A DNA stretch of 64,000 nt from Polaribacter sp. (GTDB lineage: Bacteria > Bacteroidota > Bacteroidia > Flavobacteriales > Flavobacteriaceae). The first letter of the stretch is position 1, and every line of letters starts with the position of its first letter. Below the pieces are notes generated by a model. It saw nothing but the letters and a program-made list of their open reading frames with translations. It did no database searches and had not been told where the DNA came from. The position numbers and the translations under genes were made by a program. This document shows, piece by piece, positions 10,701 to 14,052 of the stretch. The stretch is from the NCBI GenBank assembly GCA_029245785.1, contig JAQWOR010000074.1, positions 4,758-68,757 on the forward strand. Direction: 5' to 3'.

Positions 10701-11008
10701 AAGGACTCGGAATTAGTGCATTACATATGCCTAATGAAGATTTTGACGCTACAAATGGCATTGATTATAAAACCTCCAACAAGAGCAAACATACCATCGA
10801 TATAAAAGAACAAAACCTTGTTCAATTAAATATCGATTTGGGACAACGTGGACTTGCTGGAGATGATAGTTGGTGGTCAAAACCTCAAGAAAAATATCAA
10901 TTGAAAGGACAACAAAAACATACGTACACGTTTTATTTAGTTCCATTTAACAACGGCACACAGCAATTATTTATAGCGCTAAGCAAACATTACAACAATA
11001 CAAATTGA
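7718..11008 (+). CDS. GH2 beta-galactosidase (LacZ/EbgA-like), secreted
   Basis: SPI-like signal peptide; [17 protein letters not shown] (acid/base), [10 protein letters not shown] (nucleophile), [10 protein letters not shown]; beta-gal small-chain domain. Confidence 0.92.
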
Positions 11009-14000
11009 ACTCACAGAATCGCATGCAATACGACACCTTAAAAATAACAACGCAACAAGCAGAAGACATTCTCTTCAAGCTGTTCAATATAAAAGGAAAA
11101 GCTTCTGAGCTCCCTGGAGAGGTTGATTTTAATTTCAGAATTAAAATTGAAAATGAAGAAGGTTATATATTGAAAATATCGCGTCCTGGTGAGGATGAAA
11201 ATTGTCTCGATTTTCAGCAAAAGTTATTACAGTATGTTGCAATTAACGGAAGTAATATCATCGCCCCAAAAGTAATACATGACACCTACGGAAGTGCCAT
11301 TTCTTCAATTACAGATGCTTCAGGAAATAAACGAAATGTACGCTTACTCTCTTGGGTTTCTGGTCGTGTTTTGAGCGATGTTAATCCACAACTGGACAGT
11401 TTACGATTTAGCTTAGGAGAACAATGCGGGGCATTAACTCAAGCATTACAAGGCTTTGATCACAAAGAAGCACAAAGAGATTTTGTTTGGGACGTTGCAC
11501 AATCATTGTGGACCAAAGAGCATTTGCATTTATTTTCTTCGGAAGAAAAAGAAATTATTTCCACATTTCAACAACAATTTGAAGCGGCGCAACATTCGTA
11601 TTCTAAACTCAGAAAAAGTATTGTTCACAACGATGCGAATGACAATAACGTAATTGTTTCAGCTGACCTTATCAATCCAACCGTAAAAGCGGCTATTGAT
11701 TATGGTGATGCCATCCATACGCAAATCATCAATGATCTTGCCATTGCATGTGCCTATGCTATTATGCATCATAACGACCCTTTAGAAGCAGCATTTCCAA
11801 TTGTAAAAGGCTATCATGCTACATTTAAATTACAAGAAGAAGAACTCGCGCATTTGTATATTGCTATTGCCATGCGATTGGTAATTTCCGTTACAAAATC
11901 AGCCATCAACAAAATCAAAGAACCCAATAATGAGTACCTTTTAATTAGTGAAAAACCAGCTTGGGAAGTGCTCAAAAAATGGTTTCAAATACATCCTGAA
12001 TTTGCATACGCTAGCTTTAGAGAAGCTTGTAAATTTGAGGCACATCCTATGCAACACCAATTTGAAACTTGGGCATTACAAAACAATTTCTCTCTTTCAG
12101 AAATGTTTCCAAGCATTGACAAAAAAGAGGTGTACCGCATCGATTTAAGTGTATCTAGTAAATGGATTGGACACTTAGAAGAAGTTGCTAACCTCGATCT
12201 GTTTCAGTTTAAAATTGAGCAACTTCAAAAAGAACATCCAGAAAAAATAATTGCAGGTGGTTATTTAGAGCCTCGATCGTTGTATACCTCTACAGCCTAT
12301 GACAAAATAGGAAATTACGGTAGAGAAAGCAGAACCATTCATTTAGGAATCGATTATTGGTTGCCCGAAAAAACGCCTGTTCATGCCTTGTTTGATGGCG
12401 AAGTTATCACTGCTGTAAATGATGCAGGAAACAAAGAATATGGCGGCCTTATCATCTTAAAACACCACGAAGAAGGGATGGTGTTTTTCACTTTGTATGG
12501 ACATAATACTGTAGATAGTGTTCTAAAACATCCTATTGGAAAAATCATTAAAAAAGGTGAACAAATTGCCGAATTAGGCAACTATCCAGAAAATGGGAAT
12601 TGGGCACCTCATTTGCATTTTCAAATTTTACTATCTACCCTAAATTATGTAGATGATTTTCCTGGAGTTGCCTATTACAGACAACTTAATGTTTGGAAAA
12701 GCATCTGTCCAGATCCAAACCTATTGTTTGCATCGAAAGCACTTCAACCTATAGAAACTGTCTCAAACAACGATTTAATCCAGTACCGAAAACAACATTT
12801 AGGAAAAAGTTTAAGCTTGCAATATAAAACTCCCATTAAAATGGTTCGTGGTGCTGGTCAATATTTAATAGATCAATTAGGTCAAAAATATTTAGACACG
12901 GTAAATAATGTTGCTCATGTTGGTCATGAACATTACACGGTGGTCAAAGCAGGTCAAGATCAAATGGGGATCATCAACACCAATTCAAGATATTTGCATG
13001 AAAACATCAATGCATTGGCAAAAGAACTGGCAGCAACATTGCCTCCAGAACTCAATGTGTTTCATTTTGTAAATTCAGGAAGTGAGGCCAATGAATTAGC
13101 CATTAGAATGGTAAAATCCACTACTGGTGAGCGAGACATTATCGCCTCAGAAGTTGGCTATCATGGCAATGCAAATATGTGTATTGATATCAGTTCGTAT
13201 AAATTTGATGGTAAAGGCGGAAAGGGTGCTCCAGAGCACACCCATATTTTTCCGTTGCCTGATAAATTCAGAGGAAGATATCGAGGAGAAAACACCGGTA
13301 AACACTATGCTGAAGAGGTACAAAAGCAAATAGAGATCATTCATTCAAAAAACCGAGGCGTTGGCGCATTTATCATAGAACCTATTATCAGTTGCGGCGG
13401 ACAAATAGAATTGCCTAAAGGGTTTTTAGCACAAGCGTATCAATATGTCAGAAAAGCTGGCGGATTGTGTATTTCAGACGAAGTACAAACAGGATGCGGA
13501 CGCATGGGTAGTGCCTTTTGGGCTTTTCAATTGCATGATGTTGTTCCGGATATTGTTACCATTGGTAAACCTTTAGGAAATGGGCACCCTGTTGCTGCAG
13601 TAGTTTGCACACAAGAAGTGGCCGATAAATTTGCCAACGGAATGGAATACTTTAATACGTTTGGAGGAAACCCCGTGTCTTGCGCCATTGCAACAACAGT
13701 GTTGCAAACTGTAAAACACGAAAAACTGCAAGAGAATGCATTAGAAGTCGGAGCGTATTTAAAAACTGAATTGAAAGCGCTTACAAAAGAATTTCCAATT
13801 ATTGGAGATGTTCGCGGACAAGGATTATTTCTTGGAATAGAATTGGTAGACACCAATTTAAATCCGCTTGCAGCGCAAACAGACTATCTGGCCAACCGAA
13901 TGAAAGATTACGGAATCTTGATGAGTATTGATGGCCCAGACCATAATGTCCTAAAAATTAAACCGCCCATTGTATTTACAAAAGAAAATGCCAAAGAGCT

Positions 14001-14052
14001 TATATTCTATTTACGAAAAATAACTGCTGAAGATTTTATGCAGTCATTTTAA
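11005..14052 (+). CDS. Three-domain fusion: hydroxylysine-kinase-like (APH fold) phosphotransferase + M23 peptidase-like domain + class III PLP enzyme (5-phosphohydroxylysine phospholyase-like)
   Basis: HNDANDNN and IDYGD kinase motifs; HLGID, LYGH and HLH M23 motifs; [16 protein letters not shown] and [12 protein letters not shown] motifs; TTGA start/stop overlap with the upstream GH2. Confidence 0.8.

Follow-up and report, generated by a model that had tools for sequence, protein, structure and literature searches.

A predicted cytoplasmic M23 peptidase module within a putative hydroxylysine kinase/phospho-lyase fusion of Polaribacter

Why should a protein that joins a kinase to a pyridoxal 5'-phosphate (PLP)-dependent lyase carry between these two an M23 metallopeptidase domain, of a family that has been studied almost entirely as secreted cell wall hydrolases or dead activator domains? 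The question is raised by a gene for a kinase-M23-phospho-lyase fusion, which we consider a real gene, on the forward strand of a 64,000-nucleotide stretch of a Polaribacter sp. genome (contig JAQWOR010000074.1 of assembly GCA_029245785.1; this whole stretch is hereafter the window, and the coordinates of its features are collected in Table 1). A preliminary description of the locus had proposed that an exported peptidoglycan-type M23 enzyme was repurposed within the fusion to release hydroxylysine (Hyl) from imported collagen peptides for the fused kinase and lyase. Our analysis leads to a different view, in which the M23 portion is predicted to be one compact, autonomous M23-fold unit of a large, uncharacterized, signal-less family with thousands of members, occurring alone, as a kinase-M23 protein, or as a kinase-M23-lyase protein. 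In the fusion, we favor the reading that it is an active but dispensable accessory hydrolase, and for the full chain of steps set out below we estimate a probability of roughly 0.4.

The fusion protein has the full set of five M23 active-site residues (H446, D450, H500, H536, and H538), and the Pfam model Peptidase_M23 (PF01551) matches it at amino acids (aa) 445 to 542 with an E value of 3.1e-15 and 56.6 bits, against a curated cutoff of 28.7 bits. A phmmer alignment to Staphylococcus aureus LytM (Protein Data Bank [PDB] codes 2b44 and 2b0p; E = 3.9e-9) pairs the motifs of the fusion with the LytM site, the counterparts of the five residues presumably being LytM H210, D214, H260, H291, and H293, respectively. 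The LytM/M23 signature (HLGID, LYGH, and HLH) that had been noted between the kinase and PLP domains is thus exactly in place, well outside what chance would produce. The N terminus is not hydrophobic: within the first 45 residues, the highest Kyte-Doolittle score of any 12-residue window is 0.70, against 2.7 to 3.1 in the exported products of the neighboring genes (GH63, GH2a, and GH2b), and the most hydrophobic 19-residue window anywhere in the fusion protein scores 1.37. Judged by the hydropathy of its N terminus, the fusion has neither the signal peptide nor the membrane anchor of the exported peptidoglycan M23 type, in agreement with what was first described. Because the M23 part lies between an ATP-dependent kinase and a PLP enzyme, and because the N terminus is hydrophilic, we predict that it is cytoplasmic. 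An exported peptidoglycan hydrolase was considered as a candidate and is ruled out by the missing signal peptide and the cytoplasmic flanking domains.

Comparison with characterized relatives brings out what is shared and what is peculiar to the module. LytM (PDB codes 2b44 and 4zyb) and lysostaphin (4lxc and 4qpb), both glycyl-glycine endopeptidases, have in common with it the M23 fold, the HxxxD...H...HxH set, and the PHLHFQ motif, and these types are among its best sequence and fold matches, although at an identity of only 20 to 30%. They are secreted and cut peptidoglycan cross-bridges, whereas the module lacks a signal and lies between ATP- and PLP-dependent domains; unlike them, it also has an N-terminal extension of ~85 residues without a structural match and its own invariant residues E422, R424, R443, N530, and W533. 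The preference for Gly-containing bonds that had been ascribed to M23 enzymes in general holds for the lysostaphin type only, since many Gram-negative M23 enzymes cleave D-Ala-meso-diaminopimelate cross-links. The degenerate LytM activators EnvC, NlpD, and DipM share the fold but are periplasmic and regulate amidases; unlike the EnvC/NlpD type, the module in the window keeps every catalytic residue, and it is a clade of fusions from Gillisia and Salegentibacter (see below) that resembles these activators in the loss of its zinc site. As a working analogy only, we point to VanX, a cytoplasmic zinc dipeptidase of family M15 in the LAS (lysostaphin/D-Ala-D-Ala-carboxypeptidase/hedgehog) group with an H-x-D/H zinc site and a small substrate; it is of a different family and fold, and we claim no sequence relationship.

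That the module is autonomous is suggested both by modeling and by its distribution. An AlphaFold2 (AF2) model of aa 355 to 585 from a 97-sequence alignment forms one compact domain (predicted local distance difference test [pLDDT], 94.3; predicted template-modeling score [pTM], 0.92), and a Foldseek search with it against PDB gave 36 significant matches, all of them M23/LytM domains at a probability of 1.00, with EnvC and DipM included; the N-terminal extension is covered by none of these 36. The full-length AF2 model, from 36 close homologues, is too poor for domain contacts (pLDDT, 61; pTM, 0.43). The M23 region of 22 diverse fusions (alignment A2) served as a profile for searches of a genome collection and a protein database, and in the former it found matches in at least 597 species. 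Free-standing M23 genes of ~240 aa were present in 5 of 80 retrieved loci (Polaribacter, two Flavobacteriaceae-type metagenome-assembled genomes [MAGs], Pontibacter, and Adhaeribacter); their products match fusion residues ~322 or ~358 to 580, and there is no kinase or lyase beside them. The best 120 protein database matches are all short M23-only proteins (168 to 294 aa, mostly ~200 to 290 aa) from Bacteroidota, Asticcacaulis, Ponticaulis, and Chloroflexota, almost all with the three motifs and no hydrophobic N terminus. Some short matches are pieces of frameshifted fusions (e.g., the apparent stand-alone P0273), and such pieces inflate the apparent stand-alone counts in databases; the stand-alone genes of Adhaeribacter swui and Asticcacaulis are genuine, lying in finished or good assemblies. 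We also observed a long-read-style assembly (locus L084, positions 5998 to 8961) in which frameshifts have broken a fusion into APH, M23, and Aminotran_3 pieces. In NCBIfam, the stand-alone proteins match only the middle of PRK06148, with E values of 1e-44 to 1e-51, against 1e-10 or worse for the peptidoglycan M23 models.

Between the stand-alone and the three-domain forms are kinase-M23 proteins of 574 to 585 aa without the lyase, from Aureivirga isolates and a Saprospiraceae MAG; the Aureivirga gene adjoins two S46 dipeptidyl-peptidase genes. The three-domain order kinase-M23-lyase is found across Bacteroidota, Chloroflexota, Acidobacteriota, Gemmatimonadota, Planctomycetota, and Gammaproteobacteria, and the architecture is already catalogued as NCBIfam PRK06148, to positions 7 to 1010 of which (out of 1015) the fusion aligns with its aa 10 to 1009. 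PRK06148 ("hypothetical protein") and PRK06149 ("aminotransferase") are, like the fusion, of three domains; the PRK06148 model, matched over its full length, has no functional name and leaves the M23 part unannotated, and the fusion scores 6 bits below its curated cutoff (1122.4 versus 1128 bits). Bacterial "bi- or tri-functional" proteins are reportedly mentioned in the 2012 abstract of Veiga-da-Cunha et al. In Flavobacteriaceae, the same syntenic slot holds either the stand-alone gene or the fusion (DUF4407 > [gene] > DUF4440, followed by YjbR, cyclase, HemN, and RuvC); DUF4407 lies directly upstream and DUF4440 directly downstream of a fusion or stand-alone M23 gene in many members of the family (e.g., L051, L035, and L046). 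The gene context of the true stand-alone M23 genes was uninformative.

We then consider how far the active site is conserved. None of the five residues varies among the 35 close homologues (alignment A1) or among the 97 module or stand-alone sequences (alignment A3). A wider sample comprised the 150 best representatives at 50% clustering, 140 of them carrying the M23 domain and 10 without it. In 113 of the 140 M23-bearing representatives (34 to 48% identity), all five residues are intact; in the other 27, the domain persists but its site is degenerate, and just 6 of them retain the ligands while losing H500. Conservation of the zinc ligands across homologous fusions, which had been put forward as a check, therefore holds for the majority and fails in minority lineages where the site has been lost. 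Eight further, family-specific residues (E422, R424, Y427, R443, H487, N530, W533, and Q540) are each shared by 113 or all 114 of the sequences with an intact site, counting the query along with the 113 representatives. Identity to the query is 41% for the M23 core and 31% for the kinase among intact-site representatives; among representatives with a degenerate site, the M23 core is at only 27%, with no change in the kinase (33%) or the lyase (52%). Since M23 identity drops with site loss and the flanking domains hold steady, selection on the module appears to follow the active site, which argues for selection for function rather than for a spacer role where the site is intact. We reject a pure linker in view of the conserved non-ligand catalytic histidines and the intact stand-alone forms.

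The most instructive of the degenerate lineages is the Gillisia/Salegentibacter/Salinimicrobium clade, the closest non-identical lineage, with 18 cluster representatives (P0124 and P0391 to P0407). Here, H446 is replaced by L, F, or Q, D450 by Q, and H500 by N, and the HxH stretch is deleted, although the M23 domain is retained at full length with E422 and R424. In three such loci (L165, L166, and L167, from Salegentibacter, Gillisia, and Salinimicrobium, respectively), the fusion lies in a unit resembling a polysaccharide utilization locus, made up of an extracytoplasmic function (ECF) sigma factor, a FecR anti-sigma factor, SusC, SusD, GH63, the fusion, and GH2. In addition, we recovered ~57 metagenomic kinase-lyase loci in which the two domains are joined by just 10 to 30 residues. 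Because the dead-site clade keeps the operon and M23-less kinase-lyase fusions exist, M23 catalysis seems to be dispensable; on these comparisons, the M23 chemistry appears optional to the pathway, having been lost from, or never present in, some lineages.

This bears on the possibility that the M23 domain is a structural spacer or oligomerization module, which would position the kinase and the dimeric PLP lyase and keep its zinc site for stability, with no hydrolysis. The persistence of a full-length domain with invariant E422 and R424 in a clade lacking every catalytic residue, and more broadly in all 27 degenerate representatives, is what such a role would leave behind, and dead-site LytM domains such as EnvC and NlpD are known as noncatalytic partners, EnvC and DipM being among the fold matches. 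We nevertheless think it unlikely as an account of the intact-site module, as the non-zinc-binding H500 and H536 are conserved as well as the ligands, ligands alone survive in so few of the degenerate representatives, and the module drifts once the site is gone. Moreover, the module also exists by itself with its site intact, in proteins that have no other domains to hold together, and other kinase-lyase fusions have a short linker in its stead.

What the module might act upon is best approached through the domains to which it is fused. The kinase domain has the catalytic motif HNDANDNN (aa 208 to 215) and the motif IDYGD (aa 231 to 235); H208-N-D210...N215 and D232, which are invariant in alignment A1, correspond to the HxDxxxxN motif of APH kinases and its downstream metal-binding Asp. 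A search of PDB with the kinase domain found no solved relative. The C-terminal domain matches Aminotran_3 in Pfam (aa 609 to 1005; E = 6e-76), and its best solved relative is the human ethanolamine-phosphate phospho-lyase ETNPPL (PDB code 6tor; E = 3e-132), followed by the Arthrobacter phospho-lyase (5g4i; E = 1e-86), with all other class III enzymes at 1e-48 or weaker. The PLP lysine is also retained, as K855, which aligns with the lysine of the ETNPPL GKP motif. Judged by these matches, the domain is much nearer to phospho-lyases than to transaminases. One public source gives names to relatives of the fusion, and two reviews that cite Veiga-da-Cunha 2012 (PMC5714238 and PMC12138971) relate that bacterial gene fusions and gene context led to the vertebrate hydroxylysine kinase and two phospho-lyases. 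From homology, these names, the literature, and gene context, the fusion is most likely a cytoplasmic hydroxylysine kinase/5-phosphohydroxylysine phospho-lyase. Its two-step chemistry would be the same as that of the human enzymes HYKK/AGPHD1 and PHYKPL/AGXT2L2 and ETNPPL, although the human hydroxylysine enzymes are separate proteins without an M23 domain.

The gene context agrees with this assignment. Around the fusion, the genes on the forward strand are tightly packed, with gaps or overlaps of at most 14 bp, and the run from 3815 to 17185 has the look of one operon. Among solved structures, its GH63 protein comes closest to Escherichia coli YgjK (E = 2.8e-74), and signal or lipoprotein signals are present on it and on both GH2 proteins. 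PMC12003778 and PMC8626586 describe the sugar on collagen hydroxylysine as Glc-alpha1,2-Gal-beta-O (Glc, glucose; Gal, galactose). Because an alpha-glucosidase, two beta-galactosidases, a mutarotase, and the Hyl kinase/lyase occur together, the operon fits the use of glycosylated hydroxylysine, and its enzyme set suits the removal, one sugar at a time, of Glc-alpha1,2-Gal from collagen hydroxylysine. On either side are genes for other collagen amino acids: the set at 17624 to 25778, together with the AraC regulator, is, we take it, a seemingly complete one for 4-hydroxyproline catabolism, and the pair formed by the ornithine-cyclodeaminase/mu-crystallin and a proline-racemase-family gene is typical of 3-hydroxyproline use, so that the region from 134 to 26765 reads as a collagen amino acid island. 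Among 74 fusion loci, GH63 and/or GH2 genes flank the fusion in ~12 and hydroxyproline genes in ~13, with either kind in ~23; these neighbors recur in Cyclobacteriaceae and Saprospiraceae too, and several fusion loci also contain SusC/SusD together with an ECF sigma/anti-sigma pair. The order GH63-fusion-GH2 is seen in at least 12 loci besides that of the window, and the hydroxyproline set adjoins the fusion in at least 11 others. The collagen/hydroxylysine setting suggested in the preliminary description is thereby strongly backed, through the GH63/GH2 operon and the adjoining hydroxyproline genes. In the searchable literature, we found neither a described bacterial pathway for Glc-Gal-hydroxylysine nor a role for the M23 part.

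With these elements, the reading that we favor can be set out as follows. The exported glycosidases would strip Glc-alpha1,2-Gal from the hydroxylysine of collagen glycopeptides outside the cytoplasm, and short peptides would be imported after the sugar had been removed. The M23 module, as an accessory hydrolase, would then free or unblock hydroxylysine from a small amide-linked conjugate, the simplest candidate being a short Gly-flanked Hyl peptide; we single this out because of the collagen context, the peptidases of the island (M24 etc.), which would allow redundancy, and the LytM/lysostaphin-like PHLHFQ motif. Cleavage of Hyl-Gly is plausible, though to name a Hyl-Gly or Gly-X bond is a guess. 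The kinase would phosphorylate the 5-hydroxyl of hydroxylysine, and the lyase would release phosphate and ammonia to yield 2-aminoadipate semialdehyde. The hydrolytic step would overlap with other cytoplasmic peptidases and hence could be lost without loss of the pathway.

Several observations weigh against this accessory-hydrolase reading. The Gillisia/Salegentibacter/Salinimicrobium clade has lost all five residues in the same operon, which indicates that catalysis is, at least by this comparison, not required there; the clade serves as a naturally occurring control for what the M23 site contributes. The ~57 kinase-lyase fusion loci have no M23 gene within 8 kb, and the human hydroxylysine pathway operates without M23. 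Outside Bacteroidota and in 80 metagenome loci, the fusion has no conserved neighbors. Stand-alone members of the family occur in genomes and contexts without a link to collagen, so that the native substrate of the module need not involve hydroxylysine. Finally, the M23 enzymes known to us are endopeptidases on peptidoglycan-sized substrates and not dipeptidases. A broader proposal, that the module belongs to a hitherto undescribed class of cytoplasmic M23 zinc hydrolases for small soluble substrates, wired in marine Bacteroidota into a collagen Glc-Gal-hydroxylysine pathway (GH63/GH2 -> M23 -> kinase/lyase), is tentative, and we regard it as doubtful. If it is true, the signal-less branch, whose active site is complete, would give the M23 family a cytoplasmic role as well, probably on small substrates. 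The fusion is the best available clue to the substrate of that branch, and the operon context points to a bacterial route for glycosylated collagen hydroxylysine.

Two further accounts also take the module to be a working hydrolase and differ from ours in its origin or its task. According to the first, a stricter version of the one originally advanced, an exported peptidoglycan-type M23 enzyme was repurposed in the fusion and cleaves imported collagen peptides at Hyl-Gly or Gly-X bonds as the obligatory feed for the kinase. The intact site, the nearness of the module by sequence to the LytM/lysostaphin type with the common PHLHFQ, and the strong collagen context are all in keeping with it. However, an obligatory feeding step is contradicted by the dead-site clade in the same operon and by the M23-less kinase-lyase loci, and a repurposing within the fusion by the preexisting and widespread signal-less family from which the module derives and which also occurs alone and as kinase-M23; we judge this account improbable. 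The second holds that the module is an independent housekeeping hydrolase with a cytoplasmic substrate of its own (e.g., recycled cell wall peptides or small amides), fused merely as a gene neighbor. Such an origin would suit the stand-alone members in noncollagen contexts in Alphaproteobacteria and Cytophagales, the syntenic slot that stand-alone gene and fusion share, and the separability of the module from the pathway, as seen in the M23-less fusions and the dead-site clade. The kinase-M23-lyase order, with M23 in the center, is nevertheless constant across many phyla, and this constancy, along with the kinase-M23 form, argues for a functional tie to the kinase over accident, so that this account too has little likelihood. 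Least probable is a ligand-sensing regulatory domain whose groove would bind a peptide or metabolite and switch on the kinase or lyase without turnover: the family-specific invariant charged residues E422, R424, and R443 could form a small-ligand site, two of them (E422 and R424) outlasting the zinc site, but there is no precedent in the family of the module, binding does not need a complete catalytic set, and a stand-alone protein of the family has no second domain that it could switch.

Table 1. Coordinates of the fusion gene, its domains and motifs, related genes, and neighboring genes (positions in the window, except for entries with L numbers, which are retrieved loci)
Feature	Position	Strand	Remarks
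Kinase-M23-phospho-lyase fusion, whole open reading frame	11005..14052	+	1015 aa as listed; probably 1009 aa, from ATG 11023
APH-type kinase domain	11104..11781	+	Pfam aa 34-259, E = 5.8e-20; whole kinase region ~aa 10-345
M23 module (aa 355-585): N-terminal extension, M23 core, C-terminal tail ending CPDPNLLF	12067..12759	+	AF2, Foldseek, stand-alone proteins
E422-x-R424 of the family-specific GGYxExR motif	12268..12276	+	Unchanged even where the zinc site is lost
HLGID: H446 and D450, predicted zinc ligands (presumed LytM H210/D214)	12340..12354	+	Alignment to LytM
LYGH (L497-H500): H500, predicted catalytic His, non-zinc-binding (presumed LytM H260)	12493..12504	+	
HLH: H536, predicted catalytic (presumed LytM H291); H538, predicted zinc ligand (presumed LytM H293)	12610..12618	+	Followed by F and invariant Q540
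Class III PLP phospho-lyase domain	12829..14019	+	Pfam aa 609-1005; PLP lysine K855 at 13567-13569
Free-standing signal-less M23 genes	L028 9764-10522; L046 6992-7717; L052 8157-8891; L075 9815-10513; L078 9740-10486		~240 aa
Two-domain kinase-M23 genes	L047 8798-10549; L053; L062 8801-10525		
Ornithine-cyclodeaminase/mu-crystallin and second proline-racemase-family pair	1587-3717	+	
GntR/LacI-type regulator	3815-4813	+	
Aldose 1-epimerase	4794-5738	+	
Exported GH63 YgjK-like alpha-glucosidase	5728-7704	+	
Exported GH2 beta-galactosidase	7718-11008	+	
Second GH2 beta-galactosidase, lipoprotein signal	14063..17185	+	Starts 10 bp after the fusion gene
M24 Xaa-Pro peptidase, DAO-type FAD oxidoreductase, proline-racemase family, DUF885 lipoprotein, aldehyde dehydrogenase, DHDPS family	17624..25778	-	
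AraC regulator	25926-26765		

Some details of the gene and its surroundings may be added. With the listed TTG as its start, the fusion gene would share 4 bp with the upstream GH2 gene, at the stop of the latter. We prefer the ATG in Table 1 as the probable start because the homologues, which are 1008 to 1013 aa long, begin at a position that aligns with M7 of the listed open reading frame. A promoter/terminator scan of the operon gave counts at or below shuffled expectation, with a promoter model that is ill-suited to Bacteroidota. An S37 peptidase is also encoded upstream of the operon. Within the hydroxyproline cluster, the DUF885 lipoprotein gene (21182 to 22906 on the reverse strand) is kept at the same place in at least five other loci (L008, L018, L041, L048, and L057).

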